A stretch of DNA of 64,000 nucleotides from a virus. Each line of letters starts with the position of its first letter. Position 1 is the stretch's first letter. The position numbers were made by a program, and so were the translations under genes. The stretch spans positions 1 to 64,000 of IMG/VR virus record IMGVR_UViG_3300032213_001988; one strand, given 5' to 3'. The notes beneath the pieces were generated by a model, which saw nothing but the letters and a program-made list of their open reading frames with translations, ran no database searches and was not told the DNA's origin. This document shows positions 33,231 through 52,628 of this stretch, in pieces.

Positions 33231-34307
33231 ATGAAGGTAGCTATCTACACAATCGCGCTTAATGAACTTCAATTTGTACAGCCTTGGTATGACTCCGCAA
33301 AGGAGGCAGACTACCTTCTAATAGCGGACACAGGTTCAACTGATGGCACAATCGAGGCAGCGCAGAAGCTAGGAATTAACGTAATAAACGTTCTTGTAAA
33401 GCCTTGGCGTTTTGATATGGGCCGCAATGCGTCTCTTGCAGCGTTACCAGCTGATATTGACTACTGCATCGCACTTGACATGGACGAGGTACTTTTACCA
33501 GGTTGGCGTGAAGAGCTTGAAAAAGCGCACGCAGAAGGTTGGACTCGTCCACGCTACGAGTACACATGGTCATGGAACGAAGATGGGACACCTGGTCTGG
33601 TCTACGGCGGAGATAAGATTCATAAGCGTTTTGGATATCGCTGGAAGCATCCCGTTCATGAGGTCTTGATGACATACGGAGATACTCACGAAACACAGGG
33701 CTGGACAGGATTAAAGATTCATCACCACGCAGACAACACTAAGCCACGTAGTCAGTATCTTCCACTGTTAAAGTTTGCAGTTGAGGAAGACCTAAGTGAT
33801 GACCGCAACGCATTTTACTACGCACGCGAGCTATATTTTTACGGACGTAACGAGGAAGCTGCAGTTGAGTTTAAGCGTCACCTTGCACTACCTCGCGCAA
33901 CATGGCCGCCAGAGCGTGCTGCGTCAATGCGCTATCTTTCAAAGATTGAAACTGATAAGACAGAGTACTGGGCAAACCGTGCAGTTGAAGAAGCGCCTGG
34001 TCGCCGCGAGCCACTAGTGGATCTATCAAAGTACTATTACGAAACATCAAATTGGACAAAGTGCCTTGATTACGCGCAGGCTGCACTAGATATTAAGGAG
34101 CGTCCTCTTGAGTATCTTTGTGAAGACGAGGCTTGGGGATACACTCCACATGACATGCTTTCAATAGCAGCATATCATCTAGGAAAGTTTGATCTTGCTG
34201 CAGAGCACGGAAATCTAGCTCTTCAGTTAGCTCCAGCAGGTGAAAAGTCTAGGATTTCTTCAAATCTTTCTTTTTACGTTTCTTCTCTAGACGCTCCTTC
34301 TTCTTAG
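33231..34307 (+). CDS. GT2 (GT-A) glycosyltransferase with TPR-like C-terminus
   Basis: VAIYTIALNE...IADTGSTDGT...RFDMGRN...IALDMDE (DxD)...VHE; helical repeat C-terminus. Confidence 0.88.
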   Translation: MKVAIYTIALNELQFVQPWYDSAKEADYLLIADTGSTDGTIEAAQKLGINVINVLVKPWRFDMGRNASLAALPADIDYCIALDMDEVLLPGWREELEKAHAEGWTRPRYEYTWSWNEDGTPGLVYGGDKIHKRFGYRWKHPVHEVLMTYGDTHETQGWTGLKIHHHADNTKPRSQYLPLLKFAVEEDLSDDRNAFYYARELYFYGRNEEAAVEFKRHLALPRATWPPERAASMRYLSKIETDKTEYWANRAVEEAPGRREPLVDLSKYYYETSNWTKCLDYAQAALDIKERPLEYLCEDEAWGYTPHDMLSIAAYHLGKFDLAAEHGNLALQLAPAGEKSRISSNLSFYVSSLDAPSS

Positions 34308-34788
34308 CCTTTTCACGAGCTTGGCGTTCTAGCTTTTCGTTACGCTCAACGTGATATGCATCTACCGCGTTTGCACTTGTTCGTGAGCGCCAGGTAAAAT
34401 CACAGGCAGTGCAGTGAACTAATCTCATTGTTGCCCAGCGTCCACCGTTAGGCGTATCAACAACTAGTGTTTCTAGCTTATTAGGACGAGCTGTGCAATG
34501 AGGACATTGAGGGTATCGTTGACGACGGGATTCCTGACCGTTCCATGAAACGCTAAGCGCACGACGTATTTCACCTTCATCTTTTCCTCCCCAGATTCCC
34601 CAGATCTGCCGATGCTCTAGTGCCCACTTTAAACAGTCCTGTCGTGCAGGACACAAAAAGCAAAGGTTCTTTGCCTGGTACTTTTCAGTAGGCTCAGTTG
34701 AAAAGAAGTAATCACGAAGTTTCTCATTCTGCGGCAGTGCGCAAATCGCTTCTTTTTGCCAACTTAGATCTGTGGTTGCTCTGCTCAA
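34249..34788 (-). CDS. whiB: WhiB-family Fe-S transcription factor with C-terminal Zn-ribbon-like extension
   Basis: WQKEAIC...AKNLCFLCPARQDCL...GIWGG; followed by CPHC...CTAC and a Lys-rich tail. Confidence 0.88.
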   Translation of the reverse strand: MSRATTDLSWQKEAICALPQNEKLRDYFFSTEPTEKYQAKNLCFLCPARQDCLKWALEHRQIWGIWGGKDEGEIRRALSVSWNGQESRRQRYPQCPHCTARPNKLETLVVDTPNGGRWATMRLVHCTACDFTWRSRTSANAVDAYHVERNEKLERQAREKAKKKERLEKKRKKKDLKKS

Positions 34789-35243: not shown

Positions 35244-35771
35244 CTATAGGTTGTTAAACGTGCCTAAGTATAGGTTGCCGTTAACGTCAGGCCATAGGTA
35301 CTGATAATGAGGAGGGCGATAGCCAGGGTCTTCTTCCCAGCCAAACTGGCTATACCAGCTGTAATCTTTGCGTAAAAGTGACACACGGTGCGTGGACGCA
35401 ACCTGTTCAAACTTATCTCTGTCTGCCATCCAGCCAGGAAAGACTAGCTCTGGAGAGATTAACTTGCGCTCAACTGCAATATCAAATGTGCCGTAGATCT
35501 TGCCAAGCATTGTAGACTTGTAGCCGCGCTTACGCCACTCGAAGTACGTCGCTGCAAGATAAGAGACTAGCACGGCTTCGTGTCCGCGCCACATGTGCGC
35601 AACAGGATGATTAACCCAACCTTTAGGGTCACGAAACTCGCCCGCAGGATTAAGCTTAGTTAAGGCTAGTAAACACTGCCAGCCTTCTAAGGTTTGCTTG
35701 TGAAGGCGCTTGTTATCAAGCTCAGCAGCAATGCGCTCGAACGAATCGGTCTGTTGCATAAACGTTTGCAT
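35244..35771 (-). CDS. Pyrimidine-dimer DNA glycosylase family (DenV/MSMEG_6728-like)
   Basis: MQTF...LDNKRLHKQTLE...HPVAHMWRG...HRVSLLRKD..WY.QFGW...Y.WP. Confidence 0.8.
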   Translation of the reverse strand: MQTFMQQTDSFERIAAELDNKRLHKQTLEGWQCLLALTKLNPAGEFRDPKGWVNHPVAHMWRGHEAVLVSYLAATYFEWRKRGYKSTMLGKIYGTFDIAVERKLISPELVFPGWMADRDKFEQVASTHRVSLLRKDYSWYSQFGWEEDPGYRPPHYQYLWPDVNGNLYLGTFNNL

Positions 35772-35809: not shown

Positions 35810-36086
35810 AGGTGCCCTTGCTATATGGGTCAGTATTGAGATCGTCTAGGTTAAGAGGATCAACGTCATACTGAACCTCATCTGCCTCCATGTTTGCGTA
35901 TATTCCTACTATAGTAATATCTCCACATGAGGCACAGACGTTAATCTCGCCTGTCTTTAGCTCATCTGGAACTGTCACCGCAGTTAGCTTAGATATTAAA
36001 CTTCCATCGTCTCCAACAGATTCTGGCTCCCACTGTGTGTTCTCTTCAAGATAACACTTCTCGCACTGCGGATAGGCTTTTGTCAT
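35808..36086 (-). CDS. Hypothetical Zn-binding protein
   Basis: CEKC...CASC. Confidence 0.6.
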   Translation of the reverse strand: MTKAYPQCEKCYLEENTQWEPESVGDDGSLISKLTAVTVPDELKTGEINVCASCGDITIVGIYANMEADEVQYDVDPLNLDDLNTDPYSKGT

Positions 36087-37318
36087 TCGTAGCGCTTCTT
36101 TGCTGCGTGCCTTGAGAAGCCCTTATCAGTGTCTATAAGCCATTCACGATCTCCGATTAGTTCACCCTGGGGTCCGTTAGGTTCCCCACTCAGAGAGGCA
36201 ACTACGGCATCTCCTAGCCACTTAGCAGCGTGCACTGGAACTGCCTTTCCCCACGTAGCTTGCATCGCAGAGTAGTCCTTAGCACCTTCAATGTCCCAAT
36301 CGTCTGGCAGACCTTGCATGCGTGCACACTCGCGGTGAGTAAGAAGTCGCGGTTCAGTTGGGTGAACAACATGATCTAACGCAGAGCCAGTAAGCACGTT
36401 ACACCAGTGATCTTCCTTCCAGCGATACGGCTGAGAAAACCCAAGTTTATACTGCTTGCGTACAACACGCGCAGATATGTCGACCCAACGTTGAGGAAAC
36501 TTGCCATCATTCATTTCAACGGCCTTCTTTATGGCTCCGCCAAGATCTCCGTTCCCTGGCCACCCGTCATTTCCAATGATGTCAAACACCTCTTGAATTC
36601 TCTGTGAGTGAATCGTGTCCTTGCCAATGTGCCCGTTTACCTTGCCGTTTTTTGAGCGCAAGGACTTAGTAAACTTAGAGTGTTTTTCAATGTAAGGCTG
36701 CGCCTCCCACTGTTGTGGAAGATGCGCAAGATCACCTATGATGTCCATGATCTTAGGGAATTCCTTAGGCTCTGTCACCTGCGCACCAAACTTTAATCCT
36801 TTGCGTACCGCAACCCAGAAGTAACGTGGTCGATACGAGAATCCACCAAGTTGAAGATTGTTTTGTTTTACGTGATATAAGTCGTATTTCTTACCAGAGA
36901 TCTCTTCTACCATAAGACGATACTTGTTCATCGTCTCTCTCCCTTGTGTATAGGCTTGCTGCACGCACTCAAACACAATAATCTTTGGCGCAACTCGCCC
37001 TGCGTATCTCATAAAGGCGCGCGTATGCTCGTGCGCTGCAGAATCAGGACCACGATTTGCAGGACCAGACCAGACTGACCAACCAGAGCATGGAGGACAG
37101 CCAACGACAGCATCAACCTTGTGAACTGGCCACTCGTTTGCGTCATCTGAGAAAAATGTGCTCCACTTATTGCCTAGATGATGACGATTAGCTTCTGCAA
37201 CTGCGTTGCCAAAGTTAAGTGTGCCCGTGCGATTTGTCATTTCCATTCCAGCCTGCACAAGGCCTAAGCTCATGAAACCTGCAAGCCCGTTGCAGTCAGT
37301 AAATGTTGGTGTAGTCAT
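36083..37318 (-). CDS. C5-cytosine DNA methyltransferase homologue with degenerate SAM-binding motif
   Basis: Motif IV GCPPCSGWS, motif VI FECV, motif VIII YRPRYF, motif IX RLLTHRECARMQGLPDDW, motif X WGKAVP; motif I reads DCNGLAGF. Confidence 0.8.
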   Translation of the reverse strand: MTTPTFTDCNGLAGFMSLGLVQAGMEMTNRTGTLNFGNAVAEANRHHLGNKWSTFFSDDANEWPVHKVDAVVGCPPCSGWSVWSGPANRGPDSAAHEHTRAFMRYAGRVAPKIIVFECVQQAYTQGRETMNKYRLMVEEISGKKYDLYHVKQNNLQLGGFSYRPRYFWVAVRKGLKFGAQVTEPKEFPKIMDIIGDLAHLPQQWEAQPYIEKHSKFTKSLRSKNGKVNGHIGKDTIHSQRIQEVFDIIGNDGWPGNGDLGGAIKKAVEMNDGKFPQRWVDISARVVRKQYKLGFSQPYRWKEDHWCNVLTGSALDHVVHPTEPRLLTHRECARMQGLPDDWDIEGAKDYSAMQATWGKAVPVHAAKWLGDAVVASLSGEPNGPQGELIGDREWLIDTDKGFSRHAAKKRYE

Positions 37319-37368: not shown

Positions 37369-37692
37369 TTAAGGCTGCTCTAGGGGAGCAGTTTTATTGC
37401 TTTTTTCAGCCTCAAGTTGTCCTACCTCGTATCCACACCCAGCGTAGCCTGCAATATCAATCCAAGTATCAGGCTGAAAACCAGACTTTGACCCATAGCG
37501 AGCAAGTTTAAGCCCTACCATCATCATTGCAACGTCTTCGCGTGTAAAGTTGTAGTTAGTGATAACACTCCACACCTTTGCGATACGTTCAAAGTTCTCT
37601 TCTGGTCCTCCGTATTGAACGTCACGCTCGCCGGCAATAATTCTTGCCGCCTCGCGTAACGCCTCAACACGTGGTTTATTTTCCTGGCTCAT
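37369..37692 (-). CDS. DUF6378-like helical protein
   Basis: LREAARII.GER...YG.PEENFERIA.VW...DVAMMM..LKLAR...DTWIDIAGYA. Confidence 0.7.
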   Translation of the reverse strand: MSQENKPRVEALREAARIIAGERDVQYGGPEENFERIAKVWSVITNYNFTREDVAMMMVGLKLARYGSKSGFQPDTWIDIAGYAGCGYEVGQLEAEKSNKTAPLEQP

Positions 37693-38324: not shown

Positions 38325-38795
38325 TTACCCCTCCACTACTGGTCTGCACTTTGCGCAGACGTCTGGCGTCTTGCCAACGCCAACATCGTCAATTGCCCTT
38401 GAGCACATCGCGCACTTGACGCCGATGTCCTTTACCTTATATCCATTTAACTGACGCTGCTTATTCTTTTCCATCTTTTCAAGATAGAACTTGTTAAGCT
38501 GCTCGTCTGTTCCTCCCGCCGCAACGATGATGTTTGCAACAAAGTGTAGAACGTCAACAGCTTCCTTAACAATCTCTTCGCGGTCTGCGTAAGGCTTATC
38601 GTGCTGCCAAGGCTTCCACGAAATTGCCTGCCGCATCTCTGCAAGCTCATCGTCGATGGCTAACATGTTCCAGCGCATGTACTCAACAAGACGGCGGATA
38701 TTCGCGTCCTTGTCGCCTTCCATCTCTTCGTAGTTAATGTAGTAGACGTCCTTCTGCAGGTCGCGTGTCTTCTTTAGCCAGCTATCAAACAGCAT
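38325..38795 (-). CDS. Dimeric all-alpha dCTPase/dUTPase (T4 gp56-like) with C-terminal Zn ribbon
   Basis: DELAEM...WKPW...KEAVDVLHFVAN...FYLEKMEKNKQRQLNGY matches the gp56 pattern WKPW...E..D..HF..N...Y..K...N..RQ..GY; then CAMC...CAKC. Confidence 0.8.
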   Translation of the reverse strand: MLFDSWLKKTRDLQKDVYYINYEEMEGDKDANIRRLVEYMRWNMLAIDDELAEMRQAISWKPWQHDKPYADREEIVKEAVDVLHFVANIIVAAGGTDEQLNKFYLEKMEKNKQRQLNGYKVKDIGVKCAMCSRAIDDVGVGKTPDVCAKCRPVVEG

Positions 38796-45276: not shown

Positions 45277-45732
45277 TTACTGCAATAAACGCACTGGCTT
45301 CCAGCCTGTTTTTACAAGTTTAAGTAGACCGTGCCTTATCGCGTCAAGTGCGTGACCTTCTCCACCTTTGTGCCAGTACTCAAGTTTCTTGAGCTTAGGA
45401 TTGTCAAACATTGCCTTTGCATCTGCCGGTGATTGAAAGTAGATGTCATCTGGCTTTCTACCTGCGTCCATAAGGCACTGCTTAAGGATGCCAATTTGCT
45501 CAAGCGAGTACGGCGCCTGTGAGTTGCGAACCGTCTGCGCGTTAATGGTAAATCGCTCACACACAACGTCTAAAGTGTCCCCGTAAGAGGCTAGAGTGTC
45601 CCGTATAGGCTTGGCGTATTCCTCCTGTTGGAATTCACCAGACCAGATTAAAACCGGCTCCTGGCCGCTCTCAAGGCTAAATAAAGCCATTCCAGTGGAT
45701 TTCCCTGGGTCTACTGCAAGAACGTATCTCAT
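45277..45732 (-). CDS. RuvC-like Holliday junction resolvase
   Basis: VLAVDPGKSTG...VVCERF...H..DAIRH. Confidence 0.7.
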   Translation of the reverse strand: MRYVLAVDPGKSTGMALFSLESGQEPVLIWSGEFQQEEYAKPIRDTLASYGDTLDVVCERFTINAQTVRNSQAPYSLEQIGILKQCLMDAGRKPDDIYFQSPADAKAMFDNPKLKKLEYWHKGGEGHALDAIRHGLLKLVKTGWKPVRLLQ

Positions 45733-47555
45733 TAGTATTTATCTCCCCAAGTCTCCATTGGACCGTCAATACCGGCGGTAAGTGGGACGTCCCAACCCTC
45801 AGTTGTAGTCATGCATTGTTTAACAACTTGCATAATCTCCTGGGCGTCCTCGCGTGGTGCGTTAAGAACAATTTCGTCGTGTACTGGCACGATAAGAAGC
45901 TCGGTTAGATCTGCCTGGTCAAGTTTAATAAGATTTGCCTTGAACACCTCGGCAGCTCCACCTTGAATGAGATAGTTAACAAGTGTGTACGCGCGATCTT
46001 CATCACAAGGTAGGCGTCGACCTGTCCAGGTGTAGACGTATCCTTGTCCCTCTGCCTTCAAGCGTCTCATTCCAGCATCTTCAATTTGACGTTGAAAGAG
46101 CGCCATGCCAGGGAAGCGTAGATCAAACGCGTCTGATGTTTGGCGCATCTGTGGCTCAGTAACTCCTGCTGTTAACGCCTGCTTAGCAACTCCTGCTCCG
46201 TAGAGACGTCCATACACAGTTCCCTTAATTAGGTTACGGCGCTTATCTGACCGTTGCATCGTTGGATCTCCGTAGATTTCACGACCAATTTCAGTGAAAG
46301 GATCTGACCCTGTTGCATCTGCACGGTTAAAGAGCGTGATGAGATTTGGGTCCTGTGAGAGGGAGGCAAACATTCTAAATTCAACCTGGTCAAGGTCTGA
46401 GGTAATGATGACATGATCCTTATCCTTTGGTATGAATGCGGTGCGAACAGTTGCGTCGCCTTTAGGCAACGTCTGTAGCGCAGGGTTTTGGATTGACATG
46501 CGGGAGGTACGAGCGCCAAGCGTCTTTACAGAGGGATGTACAAAACCGTTCACGTTGTCATTGATAAAGTTTGCAAAGTATGTGTTGGCAAGCTTATCTG
46601 CCTTGCGTTGTTTTAGCACCACATCAGCGAGATTCTTTACGTCAGCGTTGCCTGAGATTGCAAGAAATGCAAGTTGGTCCTTATCGGCAGATTTTTGACC
46701 AGATGCTGTAAATGTTGTGATCTCTGCACCAAGCGACTCGAACAAGCGAACAAGTTGAATGTTACTTGTGATTGATACTCCGTTATACGTTTTCTTTGCC
46801 CAGTCTTTTACGGACTCTGCATACGCAGTTAGTTCATCAAACTTCTTCCTTGAGTAGTCAAGATCAATACGTGCGCCGTTAATCTCCATGCGGGTGACAA
46901 TCTTGCGCGCAGCCATTTCCAATTCATATGCACGATGATAAGGCTGTCCTGGCCCGCACTTCTCCCAGAACTGTTCCCATATGCGCATTGTTAAAACTGT
47001 GTCAAGTGCACCGTAAGCCCAATAAGGCTGGAAGTTTGTAGGGACAGTTCCCCATGTCCAGCCGTTTGTTGCTAGTGATGTATCAAGAGTTTCCTGCATT
47101 GCAGCTGCGCGTCCATCAACGTAAAGTGACGCAAGACGTTTTAACGCACCTGAGCCAAGAGGATCAATAATGTGCGCCATAATCATCGTGTCGTGTGCGC
47201 GTTCCCACGGCATCTTCCAGGTTGAGTGAACATCAAACCAACGAGCTTCAAACGCAATGTTATGGCAGACTATTGGGCCATCAAACTTATCCATAGCCTC
47301 GTAAAAAACACCAGACCATTCCTTCCAAGGAATTGCCCAACCTGTTAATCCATCGCCTACCTGCACTAAACGTAGTTGCCCGTGCCAAGGAGATAGAGCG
47401 TCCTTACGCTCACCACCTGGATTCTCACCAGTTTCAGTGTCAATTGAAATTGCGTTGTGAGGGCGACGTTCACCTAGCCACGCAATAAACTCGCGCGCGG
47501 TATCAACGTTATCAACGAGATGTAGTTTTACGTCGCTTAGTCCTGTAGTTGTCAT
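45732..47555 (-). CDS. polA: Family A DNA polymerase (3'-5' exonuclease plus polymerase)
   Basis: Exo SIDTET, HN..FE, HDTM, YGALD; Pol motif A SDLDQVEFR, motif B R..IKG..YG..YG, motif C VHDE. Confidence 0.95.
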   Translation of the reverse strand: MTTTGLSDVKLHLVDNVDTAREFIAWLGERRPHNAISIDTETGENPGGERKDALSPWHGQLRLVQVGDGLTGWAIPWKEWSGVFYEAMDKFDGPIVCHNIAFEARWFDVHSTWKMPWERAHDTMIMAHIIDPLGSGALKRLASLYVDGRAAAMQETLDTSLATNGWTWGTVPTNFQPYWAYGALDTVLTMRIWEQFWEKCGPGQPYHRAYELEMAARKIVTRMEINGARIDLDYSRKKFDELTAYAESVKDWAKKTYNGVSITSNIQLVRLFESLGAEITTFTASGQKSADKDQLAFLAISGNADVKNLADVVLKQRKADKLANTYFANFINDNVNGFVHPSVKTLGARTSRMSIQNPALQTLPKGDATVRTAFIPKDKDHVIITSDLDQVEFRMFASLSQDPNLITLFNRADATGSDPFTEIGREIYGDPTMQRSDKRRNLIKGTVYGRLYGAGVAKQALTAGVTEPQMRQTSDAFDLRFPGMALFQRQIEDAGMRRLKAEGQGYVYTWTGRRLPCDEDRAYTLVNYLIQGGAAEVFKANLIKLDQADLTELLIVPVHDEIVLNAPREDAQEIMQVVKQCMTTTEGWDVPLTAGIDGPMETWGDKY

Positions 47556-48026
47556 TTAATCCTCTAGTATCGTTACATCAATACTGCAATTTTTAAGATA
47601 ATCAATTGTAGCTTCTGGCTTTCGGTGAATTGCCTTACTGCCAACACGCATAACAACTCTTGCAACTCCTGAGTTAGACACAAGCTTTGCGCATTGTAGG
47701 CATGCTACGTCTGTTATGTATATTGTTCCACCTTCAATACGTGATCTATCAACGTATAAAAGAGCATTTGCTTCTGCATGAATTGACGGACACGTGTCAT
47801 ACATGTTATCTAGTGGTACAAGACCTTGCGCACGCGGGCACCACTCAATGCAGTCGCCCTCAACGTCAAGAGTTGCAGCAGGCCCATTATACCCGGTAGA
47901 CGCAACGCGCTGGTTGGAAGAAACTACAACCGCGCCAATCTGTGCACGAGAACAACGTGAACGTTTAGCAATGGTGTCTGCTACGTCCATCCATACCTTG
48001 TCCCATGAAGGTCTATCTAAGCTCAA
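47556..48026 (-). CDS. dCMP deaminase
   Basis: CSRAQIGAV...TGYNG...HAEANAL...ACLQC (H.E...C..C zinc motif). Confidence 0.9.
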   Translation of the reverse strand: MSLDRPSWDKVWMDVADTIAKRSRCSRAQIGAVVVSSNQRVASTGYNGPAATLDVEGDCIEWCPRAQGLVPLDNMYDTCPSIHAEANALLYVDRSRIEGGTIYITDVACLQCAKLVSNSGVARVVMRVGSKAIHRKPEATIDYLKNCSIDVTILED

Positions 48027-48256
48027 AACGGAACATCTCCCTTATCATCGTCATCATCAATGTGACCGTACTCGTCCATTCCTTCGTGAACTCCTGCAGC
48101 AAGAATATGCGCAACAATAGTTACAGCCTGTCGACGTGTAAAACCAGCACGCGTAAGTTCGCGATACATCTCATGCATCTGTAGTGCAGCCTCGCGCAAA
48201 GGACTTATATTAAAGTCCTCCTCGTTAAGACCGCCTTCTTTCTTATTGTCCGTCAT
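48023..48256 (-). CDS. Hypothetical protein
   Basis: 77-aa ORF coupled to both neighbours. Confidence 0.65.
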   Translation of the reverse strand: MTDNKKEGGLNEEDFNISPLREAALQMHEMYRELTRAGFTRRQAVTIVAHILAAGVHEGMDEYGHIDDDDDKGDVPF

Positions 48257-49134
48257 TATTTACTTTTCTTGTCTGCTTGCTTTTCATCCTTCTGTAAGTT
48301 ATTTAGAACAGCGCGTTTCATCGAGTCAGTATACCACTTCTCAGCGTCGTTAAGACGCGCATACGTTGGCTCACTCACAGTTGCCTGCATTGCAAGCATG
48401 GCAGATGACTTAACCTCGTTCCAGGTGCGTCCAGTGATTGCAGGAATTGTCGGGCTATGCAGTGCGTGTGCAAGCTTATCTGCTGAGGCGTAGTGCTGCT
48501 CATAAATGTGAAGTGATCCTACGTGGTGATTGTATGTTCCAGGCTCGATACCTAAAACAGATGCCATAGCAATTTGCACGCGAGTAAACTGGAAGAAGTC
48601 ATACGCTGCACCTAGCCATACATCGTTTGAGCGCATATACACACTCATGTTAAGCTTGTTATTACGAATACGGAACTGATGCAGGATTGTGCAAGGGTAG
48701 TCACGCTTTCGTTCCTGTAGGTCAAGCTGCGGGTTCCAAATTGTAACTACTGCCTGTCGTGTATCAGGGTCTTGCATAAGTCTGTCAATAATCATGTCGT
48801 ATTGCCCTGCAGTTCGAGGACCGTATGCTCCGTGAAATAAACCGTTGTCCTCCGCGTAGTTTGCAAACTGCGGGCCAACGGAGATAACTAAGTCTGGAAT
48901 AGTTACACCTGCAAGAAGTTGACACGCCTCAACCGCACCGATGCCAGGAACTGTTCCTCGACCAACCTCAAGAGGTAAGGTGTTAAACACGTTGTCAATG
49001 CGAATAATCGCATCCTCGATCTCAAGGGTCTTCATACCACGTGGAGCAACCTCCTTGCCGTGCTCAAGTACATGCTTAACAAGATCAACGTATCCGTTGA
49101 CTCCGTCTTCTATATTTATTATCGCAGTATCCAT
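48256..49134 (-). CDS. Thymidylate-synthase-fold enzyme, dCMP hydroxymethylase-like
   Basis: DYPCT catalytic Cys; MRSNDVWLGAAYDF has Asp at the dUMP/dCMP specificity position; GSLHIY. Confidence 0.85.
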   Translation of the reverse strand: MDTAIINIEDGVNGYVDLVKHVLEHGKEVAPRGMKTLEIEDAIIRIDNVFNTLPLEVGRGTVPGIGAVEACQLLAGVTIPDLVISVGPQFANYAEDNGLFHGAYGPRTAGQYDMIIDRLMQDPDTRQAVVTIWNPQLDLQERKRDYPCTILHQFRIRNNKLNMSVYMRSNDVWLGAAYDFFQFTRVQIAMASVLGIEPGTYNHHVGSLHIYEQHYASADKLAHALHSPTIPAITGRTWNEVKSSAMLAMQATVSEPTYARLNDAEKWYTDSMKRAVLNNLQKDEKQADKKSK

Positions 49135-50132
49135 GCGTCATCCTTTTCTTGTAGTGTAGCAACTCGTAGAATTGCATCTCCGTATTCTTCCTTGCTTTTG
49201 TTAAAGAACCTACGCACATACTGCGGGTGAGGCAGAACAGAGTAGTAGTCCTCGTGTACGGGAATTGACGCCAACGTCTTCTCCGCAAGACGCCCAAGAA
49301 CAACTATTCTTGGGAAACCTAACGTTCTCCATAACTTTAAGAAGGAGTCCTTCACACCTTCATCGTTTATATTGACGATGCCCACGGCACGCCAAAGCTC
49401 CTCGGACATTGCAGTAAGTAGATACTCCGCAGAGTTACCATCAACAGGCATAAACGGAAGTTTTGTTTCCTCGCCGTATTTCTTTACGATGTTACGCGTA
49501 TCTCCAATAAGCAGCACCTTCGGGCTTGGGTTTCCAATATAGTATGGAAAAGGCTCGAGCTTGGCTGCCATTAACTCAACCTGCTCCGCGCTATCAACTA
49601 TATACTTTGCAACCTCAGGTATAAGATCAATGCTGTCTGCTGGAGGCTCAATCTTTGCAATGATGTTTGATGAGCCACAGGCAATTTCATATTGTTTAAG
49701 AATATCACTGAGGTCATCTACGTCTACAAAGTCGTCGCCGCGAGAGGCAAGACGCTGCTGAATAACATCAAGAGGCTGATATAGCCAAAATTGAGCAACG
49801 CCACGAGACATAAGGAAGAGTTCAACCCAACGCCAACCGGCCTTGCCTAATAGACCATATCCATCCTTGTTTGTACTTGGGCGAAACTTAGGAGCGTATG
49901 TTACTTCGCCCCAGTGCCAACGATCTGATAATCCAATTTTATTAAACCAATTTATTGGTTCAATTGACATGACGTAGTCGTTTAACACCCAACGGCGTGT
50001 TTGTTCTTCAGGACGCCCCTTGTGAAAAAGACGCGTTGGAGTAGTTGCAAAGCGCTCGTTAAGCTCGTGCTCAACTGCAGCGATAAGAGAGCTCTTACCC
50101 GATGCGTCGGTACCTTCGATTACTATAAACAT
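49119..50132 (-). CDS. dNMP (thymidylate-type) kinase fused to a uracil-DNA-glycosylase-like domain
   Basis: IEGTDASGKSS P-loop and DRWH; C-terminal VLLIGDTRN...FMP..GNSAEYL...IVVLGRLA...LPHPQY. Confidence 0.75.
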   Translation of the reverse strand: MFIVIEGTDASGKSSLIAAVEHELNERFATTPTRLFHKGRPEEQTRRWVLNDYVMSIEPINWFNKIGLSDRWHWGEVTYAPKFRPSTNKDGYGLLGKAGWRWVELFLMSRGVAQFWLYQPLDVIQQRLASRGDDFVDVDDLSDILKQYEIACGSSNIIAKIEPPADSIDLIPEVAKYIVDSAEQVELMAAKLEPFPYYIGNPSPKVLLIGDTRNIVKKYGEETKLPFMPVDGNSAEYLLTAMSEELWRAVGIVNINDEGVKDSFLKLWRTLGFPRIVVLGRLAEKTLASIPVHEDYYSVLPHPQYVRRFFNKSKEEYGDAILRVATLQEKDDAWILR

Positions 50133-50721: not shown

Positions 50722-51045
50722 CTACTCATTTTCTTGTCCTCTGTCTATGCGCATTGGATTTTCTGTTGCATACTTTATACAAAAATTCATAACTTCTAGC
50801 ATTTTCATAGATACGTCAGGTCCGGCTAGAGTTTGCGCGTCCATGAACTCTGCAACTCCTCTAAAGTATAGGCTTACTTTATTAAAGTAATCTTCAATAG
50901 ATGTAGGGTCTGCCTCTAGGGCTTCCTTGTGAGAGCATTCTGAGTAGCTTAACGCCTCGTTGTCCTTATAGACTACTCTGTATATCTTAGGGTACCCGTT
51001 ATCACCTTCGTCGATTATTGTTGTGTATCTTACCTCAAGTGCCAT
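50722..51045 (-). CDS. Hypothetical protein at the end of the tail operon
   Basis: 107 aa, coupled to the tail fibre gene. Confidence 0.6.
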   Translation of the reverse strand: MALEVRYTTIIDEGDNGYPKIYRVVYKDNEALSYSECSHKEALEADPTSIEDYFNKVSLYFRGVAEFMDAQTLAGPDVSMKMLEVMNFCIKYATENPMRIDRGQENE

Positions 51046-52628
51046 TACTTTTTGTCCTTTCGTATGTTATTTATGTCCTCAAGGTGATCTACCCTGAGAG
51101 AAAGTTCTTGAATTGACTTAATAACAGGGGAGATAAGCTGGTAGTAGTCAATTCTTCTTACAGGGCTTGGTGCAAGTCCAGGTTCAGGCGCAAGCTCGCT
51201 TTCATCACGGAAGACAAGACCATAGTTCTCAATACCTTCGCTTGACATGAGTTTTTCAACGTCCTGCGCAATAAGACCGTACTGCACAGAGTCAGCTTGC
51301 TCATTCCACGCGAACGAAACAGGAGTAAGCTTATTGATGAAGTTTAGACCAAGCCCAACTGGAGAAACCTTTTGCTTTAGGCGTAAGTCAGACTTTGCAC
51401 CGGGAGCGCCTGCAGGACCAGGAGCACCTTTAGGGCCAGGAGGGCCAGGAGGGCCAATAGGACCAGTAGGTCCTGCAATGAAAGGTCCACGAAAAATTGT
51501 TCCGCTGCTATTGATATATGCAAGACCAGTGCCAGAGCCTTTAAGGCCAGAGGCAAAATACGAGCCAGTGATGTCCATATTTCCGGCTACAAAAACATTA
51601 CCAACGGTTGAAATTGTGTAGCCAGACACAATTGATCCAGAGACAAGAAGCCCACCAGTTAACTGAGCCTTACCCGACATTTGAAGCCCACCGAACAACG
51701 AGTTAACGCCTAAGAAGCCCATGCCAAGAAAGTTAGTTCCAGAATGCTGTAGAATAGCTCCAGTAGATCCAAGAAATATCCTAGGAACACCATTATTGAC
51801 AGCACCAAGATTCATTCCCGTGCCAAACGTAGGGTCACCATCACTAGCAGATAGAGATCCTAACGGTGTTCCGCTATTTCCATAAATTGTTAAGGTACGA
51901 TTGCCACCATCAAGCTCTACTCTAGCTTTCTCTCCAAGCAAGGGATCTCTTGTTCTCACTGTTCTACCTGTAAGTGTTCCAGCAGTAATGTTAGTTGCGT
52001 TGATGTTCTCAACGATAATATCTGTTGCGTTTATTGTGCCAGTCGAACCGTCAAAGGTTAGTGTATTCACTCCGGCAGAGTTTATTGCACGCAAACCTTG
52101 TGCGGTAAGTTCAATGCGCGAAACATCGTTTACGTTATCCTTAAGCTCAATCTTCTTGCCTTGAATCAGCGACGCGGTAATTGCGTTGGCTGAGATCTTG
52201 TCTGCAACAATGGCGTTAGCAGAGATCTCATCCGCGGTAATTGCGTTGGCTTGAATCTCGCGCGCGGTAATGGCATCAGCGCTAATCTTGCCTGCAATAA
52301 TGGCGTTGGCGTTAATTACACGTGCGTCAATCGCGTCAGTGGTGATGTTACGGTTTGTGACCGCGTTGTTGTTCAGCTCAGAGTTGGTAACCGCGTTCGC
52401 GTCAATGGTACGAGTAGAGATCTCATTGGTTCCAATTGAGTTTTCTACAACCGCAAGATTTTTTATCGTCTCCGTGACAACTGCTGCACGTGGAAGCTTC
52501 TCTGTTGTAACAACCTGTGCCTGTAGACGTTTTGCAGCAGGGCGTTTTTCAATGTAGCGTAGACGCGAGTCAATGTTAGTTGTCATGTTACCTACAGACT
52601 TACGAGATCTAAAGCGACGACTAGCCAC
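51045..52628 (-). CDS. Tail fibre/spike with C-terminal intramolecular chaperone (peptidase S74)
   Basis: 10-aa repeats AITA.EI.AN; short GPP collagen; SDLRLK...GLIAQDVE...IDY.QLI..VIKSIQEL. Confidence 0.88.
   Translation of the reverse strand: MASRRFRSRKSVGNMTTNIDSRLRYIEKRPAAKRLQAQVVTTEKLPRAAVVTETIKNLAVVENSIGTNEISTRTIDANAVTNSELNNNAVTNRNITTDAIDARVINANAIIAGKISADAITAREIQANAITADEISANAIVADKISANAITASLIQGKKIELKDNVNDVSRIELTAQGLRAINSAGVNTLTFDGSTGTINATDIIVENINATNITAGTLTGRTVRTRDPLLGEKARVELDGGNRTLTIYGNSGTPLGSLSASDGDPTFGTGMNLGAVNNGVPRIFLGSTGAILQHSGTNFLGMGFLGVNSLFGGLQMSGKAQLTGGLLVSGSIVSGYTISTVGNVFVAGNMDITGSYFASGLKGSGTGLAYINSSGTIFRGPFIAGPTGPIGPPGPPGPKGAPGPAGAPGAKSDLRLKQKVSPVGLGLNFINKLTPVSFAWNEQADSVQYGLIAQDVEKLMSSEGIENYGLVFRDESELAPEPGLAPSPVRRIDYYQLISPVIKSIQELSLRVDHLEDINNIRKDKK

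Follow-up and report, generated by a model that had tools for sequence, protein, structure and literature searches.

The 64,000-nucleotide stretch of DNA analysed here (the window) covers the initial 64 kb of IMGVR_UViG_3300032213_001988, a viral record of 131.5 kb that is complete and has direct terminal repeats, and on its minus strand it carries a gene that fuses a P-loop nucleotide kinase of the YorR/thymidylate-kinase (TMPK) class to a minimal domain with the fold of the uracil-DNA glycosylases (UDGs) (Table 1). Our best reading of this protein, which we hold with evenly balanced confidence, is that it combines a modified-deoxycytidine-monophosphate (dCMP) kinase with a uracil-type DNA glycosylase, in a module that handles modified cytosine nucleotides. 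An earlier note on this DNA, made from the sequence alone, had proposed a TMPK-like kinase joined to a UDG-type domain, and profile searches, Foldseek and VIA-align all uphold that proposal; the two-domain architecture is secure, as is the assignment of each domain. The motifs on which the proposal was built are all present, namely EGTDASGKSS (residues 6-15), DRWH (70-73) and VLLIGDTRN (206-214), followed by PFMPVDGNS..YL (226-238), IVVLGRLA (276-283) and HPQY (302-305). Our literature searches, including one aimed at kinase-UDG fusions, found no paper describing the fusion, which apparently is undescribed so far.

AlphaFold modelling combined with Foldseek, the check that the earlier note had proposed for the C-terminal half, recovers the UDG alpha/beta fold. 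The full-length fusion is modelled with a predicted local distance difference test (pLDDT) score of 93 and a predicted template modelling (pTM) score of 0.92, and the C-terminal domain (C-domain) modelled alone reaches a pLDDT of 89; the model has four strands, at residues 206-210, 250-254, 275-279 and 297-300. UDG families 1-6 have in common an alpha/beta/alpha fold built around four parallel strands that form a central sheet. When the C-domain model was compared to the PDB using Foldseek, the best 44 matches were all UDG-superfamily structures, headed by the T. maritima family-4 UDG (1l9g, 6.5e-5) and followed by the T. thermophilus UDG and UdgX. VIA-align, which is independent of Foldseek, gave Z scores of 11.6 for 1l9g, 11.3 for UdgX, 10.2 for family 5, 10.2 for the UDG-PolA of phage phiLo, 9.0 for SMUG2, 8.6 for SMUG1 and 7.5-8.4 for MUG/TDG, so that its top 12 matches all belong to the UDG superfamily (Z 7.5-11.6); the next, unrelated folds score at most 7.0. 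The best structural matches, family-4 UDG (1l9g and T. thermophilus 1ui0) and UdgX (M. smegmatis 6ail), share with the C-domain an order of elements that runs from beta1 and motif A through the PF..G loop, beta2 with its Asn and LG..A to beta4 with the His motif. The C-domain is nonetheless much smaller than these enzymes (about 145 residues compared to about 190-210) and differs from them in having no iron-sulfur (Fe-S) cysteines, no R-loop with its H109 and HPQ in place of HPS, and in being fused to a kinase. Family-4 UDGs bind a [4Fe-4S] cluster through four cysteines. As the earlier note had observed, such cysteines are absent here: the window C-domain has none, the whole fusion protein has a single one, C152, and among 70 diverse relatives, 27-70% identical to the window protein, 27 have no cysteine in the C-domain and only 1 has four.

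Sequence comparisons connect the C-domain to the same lineage, in part through an intermediate. We fetched UdgX genes from public genomes by DNA pattern and compared the resulting 60-sequence alignment to a broad C-domain profile using hhalign; the two profiles align end to end (E 2-3e-5). Weak matches to the Pfam UDG family at E<=1 occur in 20 of 36 family members, the best at 8e-4. A fold search of BFVD further identified gp315 of the cultured Bacillus phage G, an uncharacterised protein of 331 residues that aligns with the fusion family across 279 columns and both domains (hhalign, 3.6e-21). By itself, gp315 exceeds the Pfam thresholds for both UDG (48.2 bits; cut-off 24.3) and Thymidylate_kin (28.9 bits; cut-off 27). 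Because gp315 passes the Pfam UDG threshold and aligns with the family, the homology of the window C-domain to UDGs is supported indirectly. Motif A of gp315 reads AQNPG and resembles that of the families 1-3 UDGs, in which the third residue of the motif is catalytic. Searches for UDG genes elsewhere in the 131.5-kb genome and in four related phages found none, gp315 of phage G being the sole match.

Within this fold, several of the residues that serve catalysis and base recognition in UdgX are conserved, as judged in the 70 relatives. G210 and D211 align with UdgX G51 and E52; G210 is present in 70/70 sequences, position 211 is Asp in 56/70 and Glu in 14/70, and R213 is kept in 61/70, which gives the family a motif A consensus of G-[DE]-x-R-x. 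The description of motif A in the earlier note as non-canonical is correct, and its statement that GDTRN matches no known motif holds literally. The alignment nevertheless places GDTRN opposite the GE(Q/A)PG of UdgX and family 4, and GE is found at this site in those 14 relatives; read in this way, GDTRN is a D-for-E variant of the family-4 motif from which Pro-Gly has been lost. In the loop equivalent to the DNA-contacting loop of family 4, F227 and P229 are each conserved in 70/70, S234 in 69/70 and G235 in 64/70, with P229 aligned to the Pro of the family-4/UdgX PFVGPAG. In UdgX, E52 activates the water molecule in catalysis of the family-4 type, both N91 and H178 form hydrogen bonds to uracil, and R184 binds the backbone of the DNA (PMC10359453). 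Compared to the family-4 motif B, HPS(S/A)(L/V)(L/V)R (PMC10359453), the window HPQYVRR retains the His, the Pro and the Arg six positions on, with Gln in place of Ser; H302, P303 and R308 are each found in 70/70 relatives and Q304 in 68/70. The UdgX R-loop KRRIH, which bears the nucleophile H109, falls in a region that is deleted in the profile-profile alignment, as does the segment that carries the Fe-S cysteines of family 4. Among the possibilities raised in the earlier note was a catalytically dead domain. The motif-A acid and the equivalents of N91, H178 and R184 are all kept in 70/70 relatives, and since residues of catalytic type are invariant, a dead C-domain appears unlikely.

The N-terminal half belongs among the nucleotide kinases. 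It matches PHROG 761, 'thymidylate kinase', at 1.2e-12, and its closest solved relative is the single-domain SPbeta prophage protein YorR (2axp/3kb2), which is matched at 4e-8 with a close-family profile and, as 2axp, at 6.2e-21 across the whole chain with a broad profile; with the broad full-length profile, kinases alone appear among the PDB matches listed. Foldseek likewise ranks YorR (2axp/3kb2) first at 2e-7, followed by thymidylate kinases and PPK2. The elements that define the YorR/TMPK class, a Walker A motif, DR[YHW], an Arg-bearing LID and a TMPK-like fold, are all found in the N-half, and within its LID-like segment R127, R131, G132 and D133 are invariant among 40 closer relatives. 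The window protein has no match to Pfam Thymidylate_kin (PF02223; gathering threshold 27 bits) at E<=1. T4 gp1 (1dek/1del) is not among the Foldseek and HMMER matches listed; no direct comparison was made and a distant similarity is possible. We also considered and rejected identity with the 5-hydroxymethyldeoxyuridine DNA kinases, as there is no match to Pfam PF18748 (HMUDK_HMUD1) at E<=1 and hhalign to M6 gp54 aligns only 39 P-loop columns. As controls, M6 gp54 matches HMUDK_HMUD1 at 7.7e-18 and M6 gp51 matches ADDT at 1.4e-46.

The genetic setting of the fusion points to cytosine modification. The last 16 nucleotides of the fusion gene overlap the start of the downstream gene, a homologue of thymidylate synthase (TS) whose closest solved relative is the CMP 5-hydroxymethylase MilA (5e-23). 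In TS homologues, Asp at the N177 position marks a cytosine substrate and Asp at the L143 position marks a non-methyl product (T4 gp42 and MilA are examples), whereas D169N is typical of 5-hydroxy-dCMP synthases (PMC13326640). The window TS homologue has Asp at both the L143 and the N177 positions and retains D169. We reject a 5-hydroxy-dCMP synthase on the ground of this retained D169, D169N being the diagnostic change. In 80/80 loci, these being the loci with enough sequence, the gene directly after the fusion encodes a TS homologue that carries Asp at position N177, and three distant metagenome contigs show the same gene order with the TS homologue immediately downstream. In the window, the minus-strand operon runs from the fusion and the TS homologue through a 77-residue open reading frame (ORF), a dCMP deaminase, a family-A polymerase, an SNF2 helicase and a PD-(D/E)XK nuclease to AAA_24 and DUF669 genes. 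YorR/TMPK-like 'nucleotide kinases' also adjoin dCMP-acting TS homologues in the DLP3, RB69 and RL38J1 clusters (PMC13326640). Unlike the fusion, those kinases are single-domain proteins, and the TS homologues beside them are 5-hydroxy-dCMP synthases of the D169N type; the TS homologue here retains D169. A predicted complex of the fusion with the TS homologue scored 0.00 against a mark of 0.32, which carries no weight either way.

Taken together with an all-alpha enzyme of the dUTPase_2 family encoded elsewhere in the window, which is a candidate for the dCTPase/dUTPase that would remove canonical nucleotides, the role of gp56 in T4, these genes would give the phage the same predicted set of activities as the T4 5-hydroxymethylcytosine (hmC) pathway (gp42, gp1, gp56 and cd): a hydroxymethylase-type TS homologue, a deoxynucleoside monophosphate (dNMP) kinase, a dCMP deaminase and an all-alpha dUTPase/dCTPase-like enzyme. 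The window phage differs from T4 in that its kinase is of the YorR/TMPK class and its 131.5-kb genome has no T4-type alpha- or beta-glucosyltransferase. We know of no UDG domain in the hmC precursor pathway of T4. Conserved gene order and the signature residues make a good case, short of proof, that the pathway here supplies a nucleotide of the 5-hydroxymethyl-dCMP type. Phage G provides a comparable case, as its gp309-gp319 genes (L207, 719-9495), a candidate cluster for DNA modification, encode a sugar-1-phosphate thymidylyltransferase, a HAD phosphatase, an AGT-family DNA alpha-glucosyltransferase, gp315, a dCMP deaminase and a hydroxymethylase-type TS homologue, which has Asp at positions L143 and N177; this gene content suggests that phage G carries glucosylated hmC. 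Phage G gp315 thus has the same two domains and the same type of deaminase/TS neighbourhood as the window fusion, but differs in its AQNPG motif A, in scoring above the UDG threshold and in the AGT and sugar-nucleotide genes nearby, the window genome having no AGT or BGT match.

We next considered how widely the fusion is distributed. A search limited to proteins of 185-590 residues returned 394 homologues at E<=1e-3, of which the best 120 are nearly all full length (333-341 residues), and 122 IMG/VR stretches carry a relative of the fusion. Searching with a C-domain profile gave matches in 1143 representatives of clusters built at 50% identity, and 593 of these matches had E<=1e-10. The best 150 of these matches are mostly in proteins of 290-360 residues and lie at about residues 160-310, and the fusion is therefore the norm; given an architecture conserved across homologues and a UDG fold modelled with high confidence, its occurrence is not due to chance. 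A search for longer fusions (591-2000 residues) found none, which is weak evidence, and the three shorter forms that were found are probably fragments. We found the fusion in phage or viral sequence only. GTDB species genomes held no relative when searched with patterns from close relatives only, and distant cellular homologues may exist. The nearest GenBank relative of the viral record is the metagenome-assembled Actinomycetia phage DSL-LC01, which encodes a 52%-identical full-length homologue annotated 'thymidylate kinase', and the fusion ORF measures 331-332 residues in the GenBank phages DSL-LC01 and G.

These observations allow a mechanism to be proposed. The overlapping downstream TS homologue would turn dCMP into 5-hydroxymethyl-dCMP, as its signature residues suggest, and the YorR/TMPK-class kinase, to judge by its fold, its motifs and the conserved gene order, would phosphorylate this product to the diphosphate, after which the modified nucleotide would enter the triphosphate pool and reach the adjacent family-A polymerase. 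Its conserved residues suggest that the C-domain is a minimal, Fe-S-free descendant of the family-4/UdgX lineage, which would flip a uracil-type pyrimidine (U, possibly 5-hydroxymethyluracil (5-hmU)) out of DNA and cleave its glycosidic bond, thereby policing new phage DNA. Because the carboxylate of motif A, the Asn that reads the base, the His of motif B and the Arg for the DNA backbone are all retained, the C-domain is most likely still a glycosylase. That it is an active uracil-type DNA glycosylase, to which we give about even odds, would be the most economical reading of the conserved catalytic set and would fit the precedent of UDG-polymerase fusions. Phages whose genomes carry modified T provide this precedent: their PolA is fused to an active UDG domain, which removes the unmodified precursor base dU (PMC13697223). 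For policing of new DNA, these UDG-PolA fusions (SP15-like phiLo 9qhs and YerA41; SPO1 and SP-10) are the closest precedent: they likewise join a UDG fold to an enzyme of replication or nucleotide supply in a phage with a replaced pyrimidine, but their partner is a polymerase in thymidine-modifying phages, whereas the window fusion has a kinase as partner and belongs to a predicted cytosine module. A more ambitious version, in which the C-domain founds a new phage-only, Fe-S-free UDG family with a specificity tuned to modified cytosine and coupled to the kinase that supplies it, strikes us as improbable; such a domain might, in equally improbable examples, excise unmodified C, U or hmU, with the result that phage DNA retains the modified base alone or that host DNA is destroyed.

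Several observations weigh against the kinase-plus-glycosylase reading. In RB69 and DLP3 a separate T4 gp1-type kinase performs the dNMP step (PMC13326640), so that the substrate of the YorR-like cluster kinases is itself unproven. The Pfam UDG profile (PF03167) scores the whole protein at 14.2 bits and the C-domain alone at 16.8 bits, neither of which reaches the gathering cut-off of 24.3, and searching the PDB by sequence with the C-domain, either as a single sequence or as a profile, returned nothing. The family-4 motif A GE[A/G]PG is absent, its Pro-Gly missing from the window protein and from the family consensus alike, and the position aligned with the uracil-stacking Phe varies (Y/V/F); the nearby F227 is invariant and the register of the loop is uncertain. 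The domain does not follow the dCMP deaminase in its occurrence: one distant contig carries the fusion and has no deaminase between the TS homologue and PolA, which weakens the rationale that the domain removes deaminase-caused deoxyuridine (dU). The remaining points also favour an alternative that we regard as possible but on balance doubtful, in which the UDG-like half is no glycosylase and instead either binds bases or DNA so as to tether the kinase, possibly together with the TS homologue, to DNA under replication, or acts as a sensor of pyrimidine nucleotides. The vaccinia D4 UDG, a polymerase processivity subunit, offers a parallel for such a tether. The position of the domain between kinase and TS homologue is fixed, with overlapping stop and start codons, and would also fit a nucleotide-level or scaffolding role. 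The loop at residues 215-234 is modelled at pLDDT 86-92 in the full-length protein compared to 67-68 in the domain alone; confidence is high only when the whole protein is modelled, a hint that the loops of the active site may be packed against the kinase. The net charge of the C-domain is near neutral (median 0), not clearly basic as that of a DNA-binding domain might be. In addition, the related, cultured Gordonia phage GodonK (L206, 5001-9813) encodes a YorR-like kinase, a TS homologue bearing Asp at positions L143 and N177, a dCMP deaminase and PolA in the same order with a few small ORFs between them, but its 260-residue kinase bears an unrelated C-terminal extension of about 88 residues in place of the UDG-like domain, and no UDG was detectable in the GodonK genome. 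The presence of the pathway genes there without a UDG indicates that the UDG-like domain is accessory rather than obligatory, and it is dispensable in phages of the GodonK type. What a tether or sensor leaves unexplained is the invariance of D/E211, N254, H302 and R308 at 27-70% identity, as a pure scaffold would not be expected to keep these residues.

Two further proposals assign the domain a different chemistry, and we give little credence to either. The C-domain could be a cytosine-directed glycosylase that excises unmodified C, and so destroys host DNA or enforces full replacement of cytosine, as an analogue of T4 DenA/DenB. If a phage replaces its deoxycytidine (dC), as this one is predicted to do, the base to be treated as 'wrong' would logically be unmodified C, and UDG-PolA fusions that remove precursor dU (PMC13697223) provide an analogy. 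Cytosine is, however, a poor leaving group, and the base-reading residue of the family is an invariant Asn. Engineered family 1 cytosine glycosylases need Asp at that position. Equally slight is the probability of hypermodification at the DNA level, in which the kinase would phosphorylate a 5-hydroxymethyl-pyrimidine within DNA and the UDG-fold domain would flip or transfer the base, much as the 5-HMUDK and aGPT-Pplase pair acts. In concept, the combination of a kinase with a fold that flips bases resembles that pair, and 5-HMUDK is found fused to other hypermodification enzymes in metaviromes (PMC8989533). Against this, the fusion has no HMUDK_HMUD1 or ADDT Pfam match at E<=1, only its P-loop aligns with M6 gp54, its kinase carries DRx and LID elements of the TMPK/YorR mononucleotide type, and aGPT-Pplases are predicted to adopt a helix-hairpin-helix fold and not that of UDGs (PMC8989533). 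Membership of the C-domain in the aGPT-Pplase family of amino-acid:DNA transferases (PF18724) was rejected on the same grounds, there being no Pfam match and a UDG rather than a helix-hairpin-helix fold. Finally, the fusion might have arisen from an error of gene calling or assembly, or its UDG half might be a decayed remnant, for which a 1.5-kb metagenome contig (L084, 1-1537) could be cited: its kinase and UDG-like ORFs are in frame and are split by a TAA stop, two codons and a GTG start. The order on this contig is kinase, UDG-like domain and TS homologue, its motif A reads GERRN, and it is possibly a natural split or a nonsense mutation. A single ORF of about 290-360 residues nevertheless recurs in hundreds of independent contigs and samples and in two GenBank phages, and the C-domain is under strong purifying selection; an artefact, to which we assign a negligible probability, is effectively refuted.

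Base replacement is a major route by which phages escape restriction and CRISPR, and its enzymes have become tools, among them hmC glucosylation reagents, UdgX and 5-HMUDK. The fusion is a very common, uncharacterised part of predicted hydroxymethyl-cytosine modules in uncultured freshwater actinophages and is also found in the cultured Bacillus phage G. If active, the mini-UDG would be the smallest Fe-S-free UDG of the family-4 lineage and might have an unusual specificity, and cytosine-modifying phages would, like thymidine-modifying ones, couple a base-excision 'proofreading' activity to the way in which the modified nucleotide is supplied or used. If inactive, it would represent the recruitment of a glycosylase fold as a nucleotide- or DNA-binding module.

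Table 1. Features of the kinase-UDG fusion gene and of associated genes in the window.
Feature	Position	Strand	Basis
Whole fusion gene	49119..50132	-	337 residues + stop; ORF list, AlphaFold model, homologues
P-loop nucleotide kinase domain, residues 1-164, YorR/thymidylate-kinase class	49641..50132	-	PHROG 761, YorR profile match, Foldseek
P-loop EGTDASGKSS, residues 6-15	50088..50117	-	G7, G12 and K13 invariant in 70 relatives
DRWH, residues 70-73, where TMPK/dNK-type kinases have their DR[YH] acceptor-phosphate motif	49914..49925	-	R71 invariant, D70 in at least 90%; aligns with YorR DRF
LID-like RLASRGDD, residues 127-134	49731..49754	-	Aligns with YorR RLRVRGDE
Long linker helix, residues 165-192	49557..49640	-	DSSP helix 168-192 in model
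Minimal UDG-fold domain, residues 193-337, cysteine-free	49122..49556	-	Foldseek, VIA-align, Pfam (weak), hhalign against UdgX
Motif A equivalent GDTRN, residues 210-214, right after strand beta1	49491..49505	-	Aligns with UdgX GEQPG
PFMPVDGNSA loop, residues 226-235, equivalent to the family-4 G.PFVGPAG DNA-contacting loop	49428..49457	-	hhalign
N254, end of beta2, aligned with UdgX N91	49371..49373	-	Conserved in 70/70
Motif B equivalent HPQYVRR, residues 302-308	49209..49229	-	H302 = UdgX H178 and R308 = R184 by alignment
TS homologue with dCMP-hydroxymethylase signature	48256..49134	-	Pfam Thymidylat_synt 3.7e-27; MilA best PDB match
dCMP deaminase, same operon	47556..48026	-	Pfam dCMP_cyt_deam_1 3.6e-18
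Family-A DNA polymerase, next operon gene	45732..47555	-	ORF; order shared with DSL-LC01 and metagenome contigs
All-alpha dUTPase_2-family NTP pyrophosphatase	38325..38795	-	Pfam PF08761 2.2e-12; PHROG dUTPase 3e-21

Some further observations concern base modification more generally. The 77-residue ORF between the TS homologue and the deaminase (48023-48256, minus strand) has an acidic end, DDDDDKGD, and no family match. A C5 cytosine DNA methyltransferase (36083-37318, minus strand; Pfam DNA_methylase 9.3e-23) is encoded in this phage that is predicted to replace dC, where it seems redundant unless replacement is partial or its target is different. The only glycosyltransferase seen in the 34000-64000 part of the window is a family-2 enzyme (33231-34307, plus strand; PHROG 13126, 1e-111) with a weak, sub-threshold TPR match near its C-terminus. 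Beyond the window, GodonK probably carries a modified cytosine too.

Other genes lie outside these subjects. A T4 endonuclease-V-like pyrimidine-dimer DNA glycosylase (35244-35771, minus strand; Pyr_excise 9e-14) is encoded near a WhiB-type regulator (34249-34788, minus strand; 7e-15), and the latter points to an actinobacterial host. A DUF6378 protein of 107 residues (37369-37692, minus strand; 3e-26) matches PHROG 474 and 1167, whose label 'phosphofructokinase' looks like an annotation error given this length. In the tail region, a 527-residue protein (51045-52628, minus strand) contains a collagen-like run of Gly-Pro-X triplets.

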